Positions 1,981 through 20,303 of a stretch of 64,000 nt of DNA are shown here, piece by piece. Each line of letters starts with the position of its first letter. The first letter of the stretch is position 1. A program made the translations under genes and the position numbers. The notes beneath the pieces are model-generated. The model saw only the letters and a list, made by a program, of their open reading frames with translations. It ran no database searches and was not told the DNA's origin. This DNA is from an uncultured Rubrobacteraceae bacterium (GTDB taxonomy: Bacteria; Actinomycetota; Rubrobacteria; Rubrobacterales; Rubrobacteraceae), in contig CAVYMT010000004.1 in NCBI GenBank assembly GCA_963769655.1, positions 856 to 64,855 of the forward strand, read 5' to 3'.

Positions 1981-2718
1981 TTAGGCCGAACCCATCTCCA
2001 CGGGATCGGCCCTCTCGACGGTGCGGTCCACGTGCTCGGCCATCAGTCGCCTGGCCTCGTCCCCGTCGCCAGCCTCGAGCGCCGCGAAGATCTCCAGATG
2101 CTCAGCGTAGAACTCGCGCCAGTCGCCGGGCGAGATCCGGCATTCCCCCCAGGCCTCGATCCAGAGCGCGTGCACCGACCGCTGCGCCTCGGCCAGCAAG
2201 GGGTTGCCCGCCTCGCGCGCCAGCGCCGCCTCGAAGCGAAGATCCAGGCTCCCCGGCTCCCCGGTCGCGCTCAGGTCCGCCCCCGACCGCTCCAACGCGG
2301 CCCGGACGGACGCGAGATCCGCATCCTCCCGCTTCGCGAAGAGCTCCACAACCTTGTCCTCGATCGCGGCCCGCACGTCCACGAGGTGCCTGAGAAAGAC
2401 GCGGTCCACCGGCAACACGGACCTCATCTGCGCGGCCAGCGCGTTGCCGTTGGGATGCACCAGGAAACTGCCGGCGTTGGGCCGGATCTCGATCTTGCCC
2501 ATGCTCTCCAGCGCCCGCAACGCCTCCCGCACTGACACCCGGCTGACCCCAAGCCTCACCACAAGCTCCCGCTCCGGCGGCAGCCGGTCCCCCGGCGCCA
2601 TCCCGCTCTCGCTGATGAGCGCGTTTAACTGCGCCAGCACCGACTCGTACACGTCGACCCGCCGTATCGGGACGATCTCAAACGGCTTGCGTCCCCCACC
2701 CAACTTCCTCACCTCCAC
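1981..2718 (-). CDS. GntR-family regulator with FadR-type (FCD) C-terminal domain
   Basis: The wHTH segment LPPERELVVRLGVSRVSVREALRALE is followed by a helical FCD-like domain. The ORF track extends to 2832, but that extension covers the operator palindrome. I place the start at GTG 2718 or TTG 2703 (GGAGGTGAGG RBS). Confidence 0.8.
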   Translation of the reverse strand: MEVRKLGGGRKPFEIVPIRRVDVYESVLAQLNALISESGMAPGDRLPPERELVVRLGVSRVSVREALRALESMGKIEIRPNAGSFLVHPNGNALAAQMRSVLPVDRVFLRHLVDVRAAIEDKVVELFAKREDADLASVRAALERSGADLSATGEPGSLDLRFEAALAREAGNPLLAEAQRSVHALWIEAWGECRISPGDWREFYAEHLEIFAALEAGDGDEARRLMAEHVDRTVERADPVEMGSA

Positions 2719-2732
2719 CGGTATGTGGACTG

Positions 2733-2743
2733 TGGTCTGACCA
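2733..2743. promoter_or_regulatory. candidate GntR operator, palindrome TGGTCTGACCA
   Basis: Perfect TGGTC-T-GACCA inverted repeat just upstream of the GntR start. It matches the classical FadR/GntR half-site pattern TGGT..ACCA. Confidence 0.5.
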
Positions 2744-2810
2744 AAGTATGGTATTGCGTTCCTTGTGTCAAGATCGGGATGGGGATATCGGATACTAGGT
2801 GACCTCGATC

Positions 2811-2835
2811 TGGTCTTGATTGACCAAGTCAATCA
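2811..2835. promoter_or_regulatory. second candidate operator region (TGGTC-N6-GACCA overlapping TGATTGAC-caa-GTCAATCA)
   Basis: Two overlapping inverted repeats read directly from the sequence, in the intergenic region upstream of the GntR-MFS-amidohydrolase operon. Confidence 0.4.
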
Positions 2836-3047
2836 TCGAGCAAGGGTCATTCGGAGAAGGCTGAGCCTTGTCGGGCAGAGGTAAACTGGATACAGACCAG
2901 GAGCCATGTGGCGTGGGGGGACCTGCGCGGGGGTATCTGGATGAGGTCGCAGAAGGAGGCGGGACAGAAGGCTAGGGCAAACCGGGGAGCACCTGCCCCT
3001 TCGGGCTCGGTTCCGCGTCTTCTGTCTTACGTGCCCCGCGGTGCCTG

Positions 3048-3842
3048 TTGGAGTGCCGGCTTCCGAGCGTTGACTTCGATATCGCAGCCTCGGCCGGGTG
3101 GTACTCGGCTATCGCCGGGCTGCTCGCAGGGTTCGCGTTGTTGTACATCCTGTTCCCGCTGGACCACGAGACGGCCGACGTCGATGAGACCGAGATAGGC
3201 AACGCGGCGGTGGTCTTTACCTGTGCCTCCTTCTCCCTCCTTATCCTGGCCTTCACGTATGCCGTGCTGCCAGGCCGCACCGGCGACGGACCGGTGGTCG
3301 GTGTCGCGGCACACGAGCAGTTGCTCAACGGCGCGGCCTTCGGATTTACCATGTTGCTCCTGCTGTTCGGACTTCATGAGTTGCTGAAGGCTTACGGAGC
3401 TAATCGACAGGTCTTTCAGCCGGCCCGGCGCGTCATCGTCGCGATGACGTCGATCGTCGGTCCGTTGGTGGTGCTGGCGTTTCAGTTCAGCAACACTCTG
3501 GATCTGCAGCGGTACCGGATCGCTGTCGCCGAGGCGTCATCGGTGCAGTGCGGGATGTGGGGTTTGCCCGACGGGGTGTGGATCAACCTCGGGATCACCG
3601 CTGCAGCCATCGCGGCGGTGCTCGTACTCGGCGCGGTGCGAGATCGCTTGCCGAGGTGGCGTTCGGCTCCGACCCTGGTCGCCAAGGTCGTCCTCGGCTT
3701 CACCGTGACCGGATGGGCTGCGATCGTGCTTCCACTCCTGCCGGATTCGGCCGTCACCAGTGCTTTGTTCGAGCATCTGGCGTTGGCGGTAACGGCTACC
3801 GCCACCGCGGGGGTCGCCGGAGCCTCGTGGCTCGGTCGTTAA
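3048..3842 (+). CDS. hypothetical multi-pass membrane protein
   Basis: 264-aa ORF (TTG start) with several hydrophobic helices and codon bias consistent with coding. I recognise no family. Confidence 0.5.
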   Translation: MECRLPSVDFDIAASAGWYSAIAGLLAGFALLYILFPLDHETADVDETEIGNAAVVFTCASFSLLILAFTYAVLPGRTGDGPVVGVAAHEQLLNGAAFGFTMLLLLFGLHELLKAYGANRQVFQPARRVIVAMTSIVGPLVVLAFQFSNTLDLQRYRIAVAEASSVQCGMWGLPDGVWINLGITAAAIAAVLVLGAVRDRLPRWRSAPTLVAKVVLGFTVTGWAAIVLPLLPDSAVTSALFEHLALAVTATATAGVAGASWLGR

Positions 3843-4103
3843 CCGACTCGCCAGATGCTCGAATGCTGTCGGGTGACTTCGACGGGCGCCGCGGCTCAGC
3901 TCCCGAGCACCGGCGAGTCCGACAGGGGCTCCGCGGTGCGGTTCCGAGCCCGGTCGACCGGAATGTCCCCAAAGACGACCCGGCGCTATCCTGGCCTTTG
4001 CGGGATCTACTTCGCTGAGTCCGTGTTATTGGAGGTCCGTCGACGGCGGCCTAAAGCAGGCGGCCCGGCTGTCCACCGAAACCGGGGCGGCGGTTCGGTA
4101 CGA

Positions 4104-4373
4104 TCAAAGGCCGAATCGCCGGGCCGAGCGCGCTCTCGCCTTGGCCGTCTCTTCCTCCCTGTCCTTGGGCGGTGCGGCGGTTTCGAGTGAGGCAAGCAAC
4201 CTCTCCGAGATCTTCGCCACGTCCTCGACCGCGGAGTAGAAGGCCGCCTCGTTGGTCTTGGACGGCTTGTTGAAGCCGGTCACCTTCCGCACGTACTGCA
4301 GCGAAGCCGCGTTTATCTCCTCGCCGGTCGCCGGCGGCTCGAAGTTGAAGAGCGTCTTGATGTTCCTACACAT
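4104..4373 (-). CDS. DUF2277 family protein
   Basis: The N-terminus MCRNIKTLFNFEPPATGEEINAASLQYVRKVTGFNKPSKTNEAAF is the characteristic DUF2277 signature. Confidence 0.85.
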   Translation of the reverse strand: MCRNIKTLFNFEPPATGEEINAASLQYVRKVTGFNKPSKTNEAAFYSAVEDVAKISERLLASLETAAPPKDREEETAKARARSARRFGL

Positions 4374-5093
4374 GGGGGACGGCCTCTGCGGCGGATCCCC
4401 GACCGCGGGACTCGCTTGCTACCGGGATGCCCTGTGCGCCAAAAGCGTCGGGTACGGGTGCCTGGCTCACGTGCTCTCCTCTCCTCGTCCGTGTCGATGC
4501 CAAAGCGCAATTCAATGTTACTGCGCGCGGCGGCACAACCCCCGCCTATTCTTCGAGAAACGCTGGACGGCTACAAATCTACTGGGCTACGGAGCATAGG
4601 TGGCGCAAGGGTGGAAAGGCGAGGACGGTTCTCATCGGGCGGGTTCGTTGCCGGCGCGCTCGTGTGCTTCGTCTTGGCCGCCGTCGTCAGCTCGCTTATC
4701 GGCAGCTACTTGTTCACGGTCTCGCAGGCCGGCTTCGCGGCCGCCAAGGCCCGCCGGGACGGCGAGGCTGCCGGTGCTGTCGGCGCCCGGCCTCGGTGCA
4801 AGTGGCCACCCGAGCACTCCGGTCGCCGACAGCAGCGTTGTTGGGGGAGCGTGTTTCGTTGCCGTCGCTTCCCACAAGCTATACATCAGACTTCTCGCAG
4901 GAACGTTCTCCGAACTTCGCTCTGAGGGCGTTCACCCAGGAATATTCCCCGACGACTCGGGACACGAGCCTCTGGCGCCCGGGAACCGGGCGGGCTACGC
5001 TGCCTTCGTCGTGCGAAAACGGAAACGAGGAGGCGCAGAGATCATGCTAAGGATGACCTGCCAGGTAAGCGGGTGGGAAAGGAGGAATCTGCT

Positions 5094-16794: not shown

Positions 16795-17068
16795 CGTTGC
16801 CTCCTCGAGCTAGTGATGTTTCCGAACGGGCCGTTCATTGGGCCCGTAGAGCCGAGATCGCGGACGGAAGCGTACTCGGATCGCCGAGGCCGGGGATGGT
16901 CCCGATCCCATCGATGAGGCCGCACGACGCCCCTCCCACCACCGCGATTCTCCTTCCCCAAAAAGACCCCGCGAGTGCGGGCCATGTTAGCATAGTCGGC
17001 CGCGGACCCGTCGCCGCGCGAGACGTTCTTTCGGCGCCCTGAAACGTTCCGAGCTCCTGTCGTGTTGT

Positions 17069-17674
17069 ATGGGTATGGAGACCGAATCCGTGAGCGAGAG
17101 AGGTAGAGGGGACCCCGATTCTCTGGCTCGCCGCCTGGCGGGCGGGGACCCGAAGGCGCCCGAGGAGCTGGTGAGACGGCATCACGCCGAACTCTACCGC
17201 TACGCCCGGGCGTTGCTGCGCGGCGCGCCCGCCGCCGAGGACGCGGTCCAGGAGGCGTTCGCGCGGGCCTTCGTCGCACTTGGCAAGTACTCGGAGGAGC
17301 GCATCGAGGCCCTCCAATTGCGCCCCTGGCTTTACCGCATCACCCTCAACGTGGTGCGCAACAACTGGCGCGCCGGTCGCCGGGAGGTCCTCGTGGCCGA
17401 GATGCCGGAGTCCGGCGGCAGCCTCGGGGCTTCGTCGGTCTCTGACGCAGAGAGCAAGGTGGCCTGGCTGGACGCGCTCGACGCGCTCGGGCGGCTGTCC
17501 GAGCGGCAGCGGATCGCGGTGACGCTGCGCTACCTCGAAGATCTACCCTACGCCGCGATTTCGGAGGTCACCGGCTGGCCGGAGAACACCTGCAAGACTC
17601 TGGTGCGCCGGGGTGTCGGAAGGCTCGGAGCGCTGCTGTCGGAGGGAACCAAGGAAACGGAGGCACCAAGATGA
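17069..17674 (+). CDS. ECF-type sigma-70 family RNA polymerase sigma factor
   Basis: Region 2 is RPWLYRITLNVVRNNWR. Region 4 is SERQRIAVTLRYLEDLPYAAISEVTGWPENTCKTLVRRGVGRL. Confidence 0.85.
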   Translation: MGMETESVSERGRGDPDSLARRLAGGDPKAPEELVRRHHAELYRYARALLRGAPAAEDAVQEAFARAFVALGKYSEERIEALQLRPWLYRITLNVVRNNWRAGRREVLVAEMPESGGSLGASSVSDAESKVAWLDALDALGRLSERQRIAVTLRYLEDLPYAAISEVTGWPENTCKTLVRRGVGRLGALLSEGTKETEAPR

Positions 17675-18480
17675 ACGACGAGAAGTCCCTGCGGTCGGGC
17701 GAATCGAGCGACGAGGAGCGCATCGCCGGGCTGCTTGGTGAGGCCGCCGAGCACCTGTTGCCCGCCCTGGATCCGGACGAATCGGTGGAGCGGGCGCTCG
17801 CGCGCGGGACGGATCGCCTCTTCTCGTGCGACTCGCTCCTGGGCGAGGTGTACGTCGGGGTGAGCGCGTACGGCGTTCGCATGGTCGGGAGGGCCGACTC
17901 GCCCGAGGAGTTCGCCCGCCGCTACCGCGATCGCTTCGATCGCCTCCTCTCGTGGGGCACGGACCAGAAGTCGCGCAGGCTCGCCCAGAGGGTGGCCGCG
18001 GCGTTGGCCGGCGAGAGGGTCCAGGTCCCGGCGGACCTCTCGGGTACGACGCCCTTCCAGCGGCGCGTGCTCGAGGTGGTGAAGGGGATCCCCCGCGGCG
18101 AGGTCAGGCCCTACGCCTGGGTCGCCCGCGAGGCCGGCTCCCCGAGGGCCTCCCGCGCCGTGGGCACGGTGATGGCGAACAACCCCGTCCCGCTGATCGT
18201 ACCCTGCCATCGCGTCGTCAGGAACGACGGTACCACCGGACAGTACGGCTTCGGCCCCCAGGAGAAGGTCGGGCTGCTCGAAGGGGAGGGCGTGCCCGTA
18301 GACGAGTTGGCGGGCTTCCCGTACCTGGCCACGCCGACGACGGGTATCTTCTGCCACGCCACCTGCCGCAACGCCAGGAGGATTAAGCCCGAGAACCGCC
18401 GCCGCTTCCGCTCGGTACGGGCGGCGTCGGAGGCCGGCTTCAGACCCTGCGAGGTGTGCCGACCGGTGGCTGCTGGTTAG
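17671..18480 (+). CDS. O6-alkylguanine-DNA alkyltransferase fused to a C-terminal Ada-type Zn(Cys)4 domain
   Basis: Active site NNPVPLIVPCHRVV. The C-terminal TTGIFCHATCRNARRIKPENRRRFRSVRAASEAGFRPCEVCRP matches Ada_Zn_binding (CxxxC...CxxC). The start overlaps the sigma-factor stop (ATGA). Confidence 0.85.
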   Translation: MNDEKSLRSGESSDEERIAGLLGEAAEHLLPALDPDESVERALARGTDRLFSCDSLLGEVYVGVSAYGVRMVGRADSPEEFARRYRDRFDRLLSWGTDQKSRRLAQRVAAALAGERVQVPADLSGTTPFQRRVLEVVKGIPRGEVRPYAWVAREAGSPRASRAVGTVMANNPVPLIVPCHRVVRNDGTTGQYGFGPQEKVGLLEGEGVPVDELAGFPYLATPTTGIFCHATCRNARRIKPENRRRFRSVRAASEAGFRPCEVCRPVAAG

Positions 18481-18555
18481 CCAGCACGAACGGCCCGCCG
18501 GAGGCGGCAACCCGGCAAAGGTGACTCCAGTAAGCTATGCGAGAGGATGAGGAAC

Positions 18556-19071
18556 ATGCGCGCTTTTGTAGGCGAGATCCAGTCCCCACTTGGACCCGTC
18601 GCCTTCGCGACAGACGAAAACGGGGCGCTGGTCGGCCTGCGGTTCCGCGATGGCAGGGGCCAGTCCTCCCTCGAGAACGGGCTGAAGCGTGGCGGCTTCA
18701 CCCTTTCTCACGTCGAGGAGCCGACCACCCACACGCGCGAACAGCTCTCCGAGTACTTCGGCGGCGAGCGCCGCTCGTTCGACCTGCCGTTGGCGCCCGG
18801 GGGCTCGGACTTTCAGGAGGCCGTCTGGGACGAGCTCTCGCGCATCCCGTTCGGCGAGACGCGAACCTACGGCCAGGTCGCGGAGGCGGTCGGGGGAACG
18901 GGCAACGCCCAGGAGGTGGGGGCCGCGTGCGCCGCCAACCCGGTCCTGCTGGTGATCCCCTGCCACAGGGTGCTCGGCGCCGACGGCTCGCTCAAAGGGT
19001 ACGCCGACGGCATGCCCCTCAAGGCCCGCCTGCTGGACTTCGAGGCTAGCCAGAAACCCCTCTTCGCCTAG
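18556..19071 (+). CDS. ogt: methylated-DNA--protein-cysteine methyltransferase
   Basis: FQEAVWDELSRIPFGETRTYGQVA...NPVLLVIPCHRVLGADGSL. ATG 18556 has better RBS spacing than 18547. Confidence 0.9.
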   Translation: MRAFVGEIQSPLGPVAFATDENGALVGLRFRDGRGQSSLENGLKRGGFTLSHVEEPTTHTREQLSEYFGGERRSFDLPLAPGGSDFQEAVWDELSRIPFGETRTYGQVAEAVGGTGNAQEVGAACAANPVLLVIPCHRVLGADGSLKGYADGMPLKARLLDFEASQKPLFA

Positions 19072-19148
19072 GCGGGCGCCCACAAAATCACCGCGACCGG
19101 CCCGGGAGGTACCGGCGCCGAACACACATTCCAAGATATTTCTTGTTG

Positions 19149-19168
19149 TATCGCGATATATCGTGATA
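19149..19168. promoter_or_regulatory. tandem 10-bp palindromes TATCGCGATA / TATCGTGATA upstream of the membrane-wHTH/PadR pair
   Basis: An AT-rich island in GC-rich DNA, 40 nt upstream of ATG 19209. The first unit is a perfect palindrome. Confidence 0.4.
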
Positions 19169-19208
19169 TACTGCCACCGGCTGGTCCCCGACGGCAAACG
19201 GAGGCGAG

Positions 19209-19679
19209 ATGTACGGTCCGGGCAGGATGGGTTATTGGGGCGGGGGGAGGATGATGCGCGGCGGTCCGGGGTCTCCGGCGCTGGTGATCGGCGTCCTCTT
19301 CGGGGCGTTCTTTCTCTTCGCGGTGGCCGGTCCTTGGTTCAACTTCTTTCCGTTCGTCTTCCTCTTCTGGATGATCCCCTTCTTCCTGGTGCCGGCCCTC
19401 GGGTTGGCGGCGAGGGGTTTCGGGGGTCTGCTGCAGGCGCGGGCGGGGCGTGCCGCTGCCGAGGACTCCAGGGAGCGGGAGCTTCTGGAGGCGCTCGCGC
19501 GGCGCGGGGAGCTCACGCCGGCGGGGGCGGCGCTCGAGACCACGCTTGGGGTCTCCGAGGCGGACAGGATGCTCTCCCGGCTGGCCAATGACGGGCACAT
19601 CGAGGTCCGGGCCCGCGAAGGAGCGTTGGGATACGCCCTCTGGGACGCGGACCGGCGGGAGTTGACCAGCTCCGGCTAA
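19209..19679 (+). CDS. hypothetical membrane protein with a C-terminal wHTH-like domain
   Basis: GGAGG RBS, Gly/Met-rich N-terminus, two hydrophobic helices, then RELLEALARRGELTPAGAALETTLGVSEADRMLSRLANDGHIEV. Confidence 0.5.
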   Translation: MYGPGRMGYWGGGRMMRGGPGSPALVIGVLFGAFFLFAVAGPWFNFFPFVFLFWMIPFFLVPALGLAARGFGGLLQARAGRAAAEDSRERELLEALARRGELTPAGAALETTLGVSEADRMLSRLANDGHIEVRAREGALGYALWDADRRELTSSG

Positions 19680-19727: not shown

Positions 19728-20303
19728 ATGTTCGGAAAGCGGATGAAGAAGGGGTTCTTCGGTCCCGGGCACGGGTGGGGTTACGGACGGGGCCGCGGCT
19801 TCGACCCGCGGCGGGGCCGCATGTTCGAGAAAGGGGACCTCAAGTACGTCGTGCTGGACCTCCTCGCGGAGAAGCCGTCGCACGGCTACGAGGTCATGAA
19901 GGCGCTCGAGGAGCGTTTCCGCGGCCTGTACTCCCCGAGCCCGGGCTCGGTGTATCCGACGCTCCAGCTCCTGGAAGACCTGGGCTACGTCACCGTCACG
20001 CCCCAGGACGGCAAGAAGGTCTACCAGGTTACCGAAGAAGGGCGCGGCTTCCTCGAACAGAACCGGGGCTCCGTGGACAAAATCTGGGGTCGCGTCGAGG
20101 GCGGTTGGGATCCCCAGGTGGCGAGCGGGCTGCACGAGATGCGGCACGAGATCATGGGCTTCGGCCAGCTCTTCGGGCGCGCGATGCACGAGGGGCGGAT
20201 CGACCAGGAGAAGCTGCAAAGGATCCGGTCGGTCATCTCGGGCGCCACCAGGGAGATCGAGGAGATCCTCGAAGATCGTGGCGGCGAGGGAACCCGCGCG
20301 TAG
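19728..20303 (+). CDS. PadR-family transcriptional regulator
   Basis: LKYVVLDLLAEKPSHGYEVMKALEERFRGLYSPSPGSVYPTLQLLEDLGYV is the canonical PadR wHTH. AAGGAGG RBS. Confidence 0.9.
   Translation: MFGKRMKKGFFGPGHGWGYGRGRGFDPRRGRMFEKGDLKYVVLDLLAEKPSHGYEVMKALEERFRGLYSPSPGSVYPTLQLLEDLGYVTVTPQDGKKVYQVTEEGRGFLEQNRGSVDKIWGRVEGGWDPQVASGLHEMRHEIMGFGQLFGRAMHEGRIDQEKLQRIRSVISGATREIEEILEDRGGEGTRA

Follow-up and report, generated by a model that had tools for sequence, protein, structure and literature searches.

Does the alkyltransferase encoded directly after an extracytoplasmic function (ECF) sigma factor gene in an uncultured member of the Rubrobacteraceae control that sigma factor, or is it simply one of its targets? 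The question is raised by a locus within a 64,000-nucleotide stretch of this genome (contig CAVYMT010000004.1, positions 856 to 64,855, assembly GCA_963769655.1), which was analysed as a whole and is called the window here. Three open reading frames (ORFs) follow one another on the forward strand, at positions 17069-17674 (201 aa), 17671-18480 (269 aa) and 18547-19071 (174 aa). The preliminary description of this DNA had reported the same three ORFs, an ECF sigma factor followed by a 269-aa protein and an ATGA overlap between the two; the ORF list, the sequence itself, in which the sigma stop and the fusion start share ATGA at 17671-17674, and Pfam analysis all agree with it. The 269-aa product is a fusion of three elements: a remnant of an anti-sigma domain, an O6-alkylguanine alkyltransferase and an Ada-type Zn(Cys)4 domain. 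With modest confidence, we propose that it is a consumable cytoplasmic sensor of the anti-sigma type, in which alkyl transfer drives an Ada-like adaptive response through the sigma factor.

The alkyltransferase occupies residues 47-208 of the fusion protein (positions 17809-18294, forward strand). Pfam places PF01035 at residues 128-208 (E = 3e-29), with the PCHRV motif at residues 178-182 and the codon for the acceptor Cys179 at 18205-18207, and phmmer aligned residues 54-206 with the whole C-terminal alkyltransferase half of Escherichia coli Ada (residues 21-174 of 1SFE). An AlphaFold2 model built on an alignment of 74 family members had a predicted local distance difference test score (pLDDT) of 91.4 and a predicted template modelling score of 0.82. 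When this model was compared with known structures using Foldseek, it matched the Ada C-terminal half (1SFE) with a template modelling (TM) score of 0.84 and human, Mycobacterium tuberculosis and archaeal alkyltransferases (including 4BHB and 1EH6) with TM scores of 0.7-0.8. The N-terminal alpha/beta domain and the C-terminal helix-turn-helix domain of the alkyltransferase fold are both present in the model. Sequence matches and predicted structure thus confirm that the fusion protein carries a complete two-domain O6-alkylguanine alkyltransferase.

The C-terminal part (residues 218-265, positions 18322-18465 on the forward strand) matches the Ada_Zn_binding family PF02805 with an E-value of 1.7e-10 and 41.1 bits against a cut-off of 23. 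Residues 219-267 align with residues 29-76 of the N-terminal domain of E. coli Ada (N-Ada; phmmer matches to 1ADN and 1U8B), and this alignment puts Cys228, Cys232, Cys260 and Cys263 on the Ada zinc ligands Cys38, Cys42, Cys69 and Cys72. Cys228, encoded at 18352-18354, is therefore the counterpart of Cys38. The Zn domain was modelled with a pLDDT of 93-98 and superimposed on methylated N-Ada (1U8B) with a root-mean-square deviation of 1.4 Å over 51 columns at 45% identity. The preliminary description had read the protein in just this way, as a complete alkyltransferase with a C-terminal Ada Zn(Cys)4 domain, and PF01035, PF02805 and the structural match to 1SFE bear this out. It had also noted the lack of an AraC-type helix-turn-helix, and neither Pfam nor NCBIfam detects one (HTH_18/AraC) in the fusion protein. 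Against the NCBIfam Ada equivalog, the protein scored 114.6 bits, below the cut-off of 345, and it does not have the architecture of the E. coli Ada-type activator.

Conservation is strict at both acceptor sites. Asn171, Pro178, Cys179, His180, Arg181, Leu203, Glu206 and the four zinc-binding cysteines never vary in family alignments of 70 and 74 diverse members, and Tyr148, Arg162 and the DNA-binding helix around them are almost invariant. Both alkyl-acceptor sites therefore look to be under selection across the family, and the protein looks like one that still handles DNA lesions as an alkyltransferase and still accepts methyl groups from methylphosphotriesters. In E. coli, methylphosphotriesters are harmless lesions, and methyl transfer to Cys38 of Ada acts as a signal. 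The retention of the Zn domain without any sequence-specific helix-turn-helix therefore points to sensing and argues against repair alone.

The upstream gene encodes a sigma factor with Sigma70_r2 (E = 4e-13) and Sigma70_r4_2 (E = 6e-15) domains and no region 3 in Pfam, and it scored 71.4 bits against the NCBIfam sigma70-ECF model (cut-off 42.9). Because only the sigma2 and sigma4 domains are present and region 3 is missing, this is an ECF-type (group 4) sigma factor. The longest ORF begins at 17069, but this first ATG is lost in three related loci (L005, L008 and L161), whereas the ATG at 17075 is kept in 10 of 11 Rubrobacteraceae relatives in an alignment of upstream regions. Since the first ATG is unconserved, the gene more likely starts at the second (17075-17674, forward strand, 199 aa). 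The sigma factors that partner the fusion family elsewhere are more similar to the window sigma factor than the best generic ECF sigma factors are, which is consistent with a dedicated clade. When the sigma protein was used as the query for a locus search, most of the loci retrieved contained generic ECF sigma genes (25-40% identity), and L083 alone among them had a fusion partner; the search is uninformative on how often the clade of the window sigma factor occurs without that partner.

The family of the fusion protein itself comprises at least 114 clusters at 50% identity (E < 1e-30), and most of its members are 240-320 aa long and carry PCHR and a C-terminal CxxxC...CxxC pattern; the closest relatives of the window protein are about 82% identical. 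Loci were gathered by similarity to the fusion protein rather than to the sigma factor, every ORF in them was scored with a sigma profile, and adjacency was counted wherever at least 1.3 kb of upstream DNA was present, which left 61 alkyltransferase-AdaZn genes. A same-strand ECF sigma ORF ends 440-690 nt before the PCHR codon in 60 of these. The lone exception (L200) is an artefact of ORF calling and is also a pair, so adjacency holds for 61 of 61, and stop/start overlaps between the two genes are frequent. Among control genes, such a sigma gene was found beside 9 of 59 plain alkyltransferases and 1 of 32 classic Ada genes; several of the nine are sigma-coupled alkyltransferases that merely lack the Zn domain, and the single Ada case looks like a false positive of the zinc motif. 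The pairing is real and strongly non-random. Its carriers span at least eight phyla, including Actinomycetota (Rubrobacteraceae, Acidimicrobiia, Nonomuraea, Actinomadura, Streptosporangium, Spirillospora and Pseudonocardiales), Chloroflexota (Chloroflexia, Limnocylindrales, Anaerolineae, Ktedonobacteria and Dehalococcoidia), Acidobacteriota, Eremiobacterota, Dormibacterota, Methylomirabilota, Rokubacteria, Binatia and Entotheonella. The preliminary description had staked its proposal in advance on the conservation of this pairing outside the source genome, and that is what all 61 loci, from many phyla, display.

Two loci encode tandem alkyltransferase-AdaZn genes after a single sigma gene: L168 (3288-4187 and about 4190-4971) and L192 (2886-4016 and 3992-4921). 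One comes from a Chloroflexia genome and one from a Ktedonobacteria genome.

Homology between the N-terminal region of the family and known anti-sigma factors was detected through its longer members. Eighteen of the 150 listed family representatives are long forms, with a cysteine at approximately position 3-8 followed by HxxxCxxC at approximately position 30, and the Pfam zf-HC2 domain (PF13490) matches 14 of 21 long forms. A profile of the long-form N-termini, compared with the PDB, matched the anti-sigma factors RsiW (E = 3.8e-9, full length), RslA (2e-5) and ChrR (1e-4), as well as DdvA. In the AlphaFold2 model of one long form (P0132), the alkyltransferase is preceded by three confident helices, a linker of low confidence and a fourth helix, as in the layout published for class I anti-sigma domains. 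In such domains, sigma4 is bound by helices I-III. Helix IV accounts for most of the predicted contacts with sigma; it binds sigma regions 2.1/2.2 and prevents core binding (PMC7406223). The Dehalococcoidia locus L083 shows the complete arrangement, with a sigma gene (1936-2532), an ATGA overlap and then a gene (2529-3464) for a protein combining a zinc-binding anti-sigma (ZAS) motif, an alkyltransferase and an Ada Zn domain. In that protein, the HxxxCxxC motif is visible by eye, although Pfam zf-HC2 gave no match to the single sequence. When the long-form model was searched with Foldseek, the top 50 matches were all to alkyltransferases and N-Ada, with no anti-sigma domain among them.

Most family members, the window protein included, are short forms that lack the zinc motif. 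Their N-termini align with the segment that follows this motif in the long forms (hhalign probability 87%, E = 4e-6, 30 columns), and the pattern is conserved across phyla. The N-terminus of the window protein is modelled as two helices, at residues 12-29 and 35-46, and the segment formed by residues 13-46 (positions 17707-17808, forward strand) corresponds to the end of helix III and helix IV of a class I anti-sigma domain. Judged by this homology, the window protein is a cut-down anti-sigma factor that keeps the part corresponding to the sigma2-binding helix. A metagenomic singleton of 287 aa (P0176) has a partial Sigma70_r2 fused to an alkyltransferase C-domain and an Ada Zn domain. This apparent natural fusion of sigma2 to an alkyltransferase was not used as evidence, as an assembly or deletion artefact is possible.

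Upstream of the sigma gene, an alignment of 11 Rubrobacteraceae relatives revealed a sharp conserved island, GTGAAAC-N16-GTGTTGTAT, that ends 6 nt before the ATG at 17075. In the window, this corresponds to an ECF-type promoter-like motif, TGAAAC-N16-GTGTTGTA, at 17040-17068 on the forward strand, directly 5' of the sigma start; the strict motif occurs only once in the 64-kb window, at 17040-17066. As the ATG lies only 6 nt past the -10-like element, the alignment suggests that the sigma transcript is leaderless or has a very short leader. The equivalent motif across phyla is TGCAAC-N16-G(T/G)GTT. The combined pattern TG[CA]AAC-N14-18-G[TG]GTT lies just 5' of the sigma gene in 39 of 64 loci, the background being 0.003 per region, and a tighter version gave 41 sites in pair loci, approximately 35 of them 5' of the sigma gene. 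GAAAC was considered as a family-wide -35 element and rejected, as few loci outside Rubrobacteraceae have it and the family-wide form is TGCAAC. From this conservation, we infer that the motif at 17040-17068 is a promoter used by the window sigma factor itself, which would make the operon autoregulatory.

The third gene of the locus (18547-19071, forward strand, 174 aa) encodes an ordinary two-domain Ogt with PF02870 and PF01035. The preliminary description had placed a stand-alone ogt 75 nt downstream of the fusion gene; the gene assignment stands, and the distance holds from the likelier start at 18556, the gap being 66 nt when counted from the ATG at 18547. Within this gap of 66-75 nt, there is no strict sigma-type motif, only a weak GGCAAC with no -10-like element, and no terminator-like site. 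On these two grounds, the window ogt is probably co-transcribed with the sigma and fusion genes. Three further sites of the tighter motif (TGAAAC...GTGTT) lie directly 5' of a stand-alone ogt in the relatives L006, L008 and L010, where ogt is the orthologue of the third window gene (66-69% identity), and such a promoter on the relatives' ogt fits a predicted alkylation regulon.

Across phyla, no third gene is conserved downstream of the pair, the commonest neighbours being EamA transporters (8 of 91) and GMC oxidoreductases (5 of 91), and the conserved unit is a two-gene cassette. In a few lineages, genes for PF09859 proteins (an oxygenase acting on damaged DNA) and HhH-GPD glycosylases follow the cassette (for example, at 6717-7703 in L006). 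L006 also carries a third TGAAAC...GTGTT copy at 3833-3859, before a 148-aa ORF (3903-4349) located just 5' of its sigma gene; by eye, the product is SnoaL-like, and it is possibly a further regulon member.

Pairs of this general kind have been catalogued before. A 2022 review of non-canonical ECF sigma factors names "6-O-methylguanine DNA methyltransferases (ECF122)" among conserved neighbours that are possible regulators of ECF groups lacking an anti-sigma factor, and it files ECF122 under "unknown mechanism", with an example from the actinobacterium Cellulomonas (PMC8999054). Conservation of a 6-O-methylguanine DNA methyltransferase in the neighbourhood is shared with the window locus, whereas the published summary of ECF122 names neither zf-HC2 nor an Ada Zn domain (PMC8999054). 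By its neighbourhood, the window sigma factor can be put forward as a candidate member of ECF122. This group stems from the classification of Casas-Pastor et al. 2021, although ECF122 and methylguanine are named neither in the main text of that article nor in its preprint. In our literature search, no paper was found on an alkyltransferase-type anti-sigma factor, on the zf-HC2-alkyltransferase-AdaZn architecture or on experiments with either. The sigma/alkyltransferase pair is an already catalogued one, and it can be viewed as an ECF sigma/anti-sigma pair whose sensor is new or, just as well, as an Ada-type sensor whose output is new.

Sigma-coupled alkyltransferases without the Ada Zn domain were also observed, in loci L212, L215, L217, L221, L237 and L238, as well as L230 and L235, and in proteins P0207, P0208 and P0270. 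They occur in Nocardiopsis, Actinokineospora, Mycolicibacterium, Mycobacterium and others, and some keep an N-terminal HxxxCxxC. These may be nearer to the published ECF122 example.

The mechanism that we propose for the window locus would run as follows. The fusion protein would be made 1:1 with the sigma factor and would hold it through its N-terminal helices, the cut-down class I anti-sigma domain. Cys179 would take alkyl groups from O6-alkylguanine and Cys228 would take the methyl group from methylphosphotriesters, both irreversibly. Transfer to one or both cysteines would permanently alter, inactivate or destabilise the protein and so free the sigma factor, with the signal passing from the acceptor sites to the N-terminus by a conformational change or by proteolysis. 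The free sigma factor would transcribe its own operon, including the stand-alone ogt, from the TGAAAC-N16-GTGTTGTA promoter, and fresh unalkylated partner would re-sequester it once the lesions are gone. Sigma binding by the truncated protein and sigma release on alkylation are steps that we infer. The regulator Cada2 is switched by cysteine methylation of its alkyltransferase domain (PMC10957082), and this provides a precedent for such a domain as a sensor. The suggestion in the preliminary description that an adaptive response to alkylation is wired through a sigma factor is thus partly supported by comparative sequence analysis. Its view that the protein occupies the anti-sigma position gains support from homology, through the zf-HC2 domain of long members and the alignment of the window N-terminus with the tail of that domain, and is weakened by the truncation of the domain in the window protein.

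Several findings weigh against our proposal. As already stated in the preliminary description, a motif scan finds no HxxxCxxC in the window protein; helices I-II of the anti-sigma domain are gone as well, Pfam has no match on residues 1-126, and the full class I arrangement of a three-helix bundle, a linker and a fourth helix is absent. The truncated protein may therefore bind the sigma factor weakly or not at all. With 0.58 and 0.72 identity among close relatives, the two N-terminal helices are less conserved than the alkyltransferase C-domain (0.88) and the Zn domain (0.85). ECF122 is listed in the review among groups without a cognate anti-sigma factor (PMC8999054), and the genes downstream of the cassette vary across phyla, so a wider repair regulon is not established outside Rubrobacteraceae. 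The truncation and loss of the zinc motif in this and most other family members, the less conserved N-terminus, the ECF122 listing and the fully intact catalytic residues would all suit a bifunctional repair enzyme that is merely a target of the sigma factor, which would then be controlled otherwise (for example, through its own transcription), the helices of the short forms being vestigial. We consider this rather unlikely. Adjacency in 61 of 61 loci across phyla, with frequent stop/start overlap, is tighter than would be expected of an ordinary target gene, the N-terminal remnant keeps its cross-phyla pattern (hhalign E = 4e-6) and shows no decay, and a separate, ordinary Ogt is already encoded next door. 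From what is understood of E. coli Ada, we also know of no value of a methylphosphotriester acceptor as pure repair. With regard to size, two helices are sufficient for class II anti-sigma factors such as CnrY, and the collection of class I anti-sigma domains used a 50-residue cut-off (PMC7406223). A two-helix N-terminus falls below this cut-off, which may be the reason why ECF122 was listed without an anti-sigma factor.

The sign of control could also be the reverse of the one that we propose, with the alkylated fusion protein activating the sigma factor by recruiting or stabilising sigma-RNA polymerase at the promoter, in the manner of methylated Ada and Cada2 with their RNA polymerase contacts, while the alkyltransferase helix-turn-helix and the Zn domain tether it to DNA. 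The Ada-type Zn domain and the DNA-binding alkyltransferase domain are indeed both intact, methylated Cada2 is reported to act probably through contact with RNA polymerase (PMC10957082), and a truncated anti-sigma domain could still provide affinity for sigma2 (PMC7406223). Positive control nevertheless appears improbable to us, given that there is no sequence-specific helix-turn-helix such as that of AraC, that the long relatives carry a complete domain of the class I anti-sigma type, a type that is inhibitory in every solved complex (PMC7406223), and that upstream alignments revealed no conserved operator-like motif beyond the -35/-10-like elements. A further possibility is a thiol-stress sensor resembling RsrA-SigR, in which electrophiles or oxidants would attack the zinc-thiolate cysteines directly and the DNA-repair chemistry would be incidental. 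The long forms do carry a ZAS-type HxxxCxxC. The Zn(Cys)4 site of Ada, moreover, is a strong nucleophile that can be directly methylated by methyl iodide. However, most members, including the window protein, have lost the ZAS site and yet keep the pairing, the lesion-handling residues (Tyr148, Arg162, Asn171 and PCHR) are invariant or nearly so, and a sigma-type promoter precedes ogt in relatives, all of which make direct thiol sensing very improbable.

A lesion-consumed anti-sigma factor would resemble E. coli Ada in its chemistry. Both have two irreversible acceptor modules, a Zn(Cys)4 site whose ligands align one to one and a PCHRV alkyltransferase, and both presumably share the logic of a suicide acceptor that converts alkylation into a transcriptional signal and autoregulates. 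In the window protein, by contrast, the order is reversed, with the alkyltransferase preceding the Zn domain, and the AraC-type helix-turn-helix is missing; the protein is tied to a dedicated ECF sigma factor and is of anti-sigma descent, and its output would be sigma release instead of promoter binding. Caulobacter Cada2 is likewise an adaptive-response regulator that uses methylation of an alkyltransferase-domain cysteine as its switch, but it is a transcription factor with an N-terminal sequence-specific DNA-binding region and has neither a Zn domain nor a sigma partner (PMC10957082). Bacillus AdaA/AdaB and the mycobacterial Ada-AlkA and Ogt represent other splits and fusions of the Ada Zn domain and the alkyltransferase, in which, unlike the window system, the AraC-type helix-turn-helix is kept on the Zn-domain protein and there is no sigma partner.

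With the class I (ZAS-type) anti-sigma factors RsiW, RslA, ChrR and RsrA, the fusion protein shares the position of its gene directly after the ECF sigma gene on the same strand. The long family members also share the N-terminal zf-HC2 domain with the sensor domain C-terminal to it, and the fusion protein resembles RsrA in being soluble and cytoplasmic. It differs from this class in that its sensor is a DNA-repair suicide enzyme joined to an Ada Zn domain, a combination for which our literature search turned up no counterpart among characterised anti-sigma factors. Among class II factors, the two-helix size of CnrY resembles the N-terminus of the window protein (PMC7406223).

The genes flanking the locus are unrelated to repair, with sugar-type oxidoreductases upstream and a PadR module, a glyoxalase and a deacetylase downstream. 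An AT-rich overlapping palindrome (TATCGCGATAT / ATATCGTGATA) lies in the intergenic region at 19137-19170, 5' of ORFs 19209-19679 and 19728-20303, which encode a 156-aa product without a Pfam match and a PadR-family regulator, and is possibly a PadR operator.

More broadly, although more tentatively, the fusion family may constitute an uncharacterised class of anti-sigma factors that are suicide acceptors consumed by the lesions they sense, and thereby a third, sigma-based design of the adaptive response. This design could be the main one in Rubrobacteria, many other Actinomycetota, Chloroflexota, Acidobacteriota and several candidate phyla. The known adaptive responses to alkylation rely on Ada and Cada2, one-component transcription factors for which cysteine methylation is the switch. 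If our reading is correct, the same suicide chemistry feeds a different regulatory machine, the sigma/anti-sigma pair, which would provide a mechanism for an ECF group that is now listed as "mechanism unknown" and would explain how alkylation repair is induced in those large groups of soil bacteria that have no Ada-AraC regulator. An anti-sigma factor that is inactivated when a DNA lesion is covalently transferred to it would, in addition, be a rarity, and it would have a built-in dose counter of one lesion per molecule. The parts are small and soluble and have a defined predicted promoter, which makes the system directly testable and potentially reusable as an orthogonal switch operated by alkylating agents.

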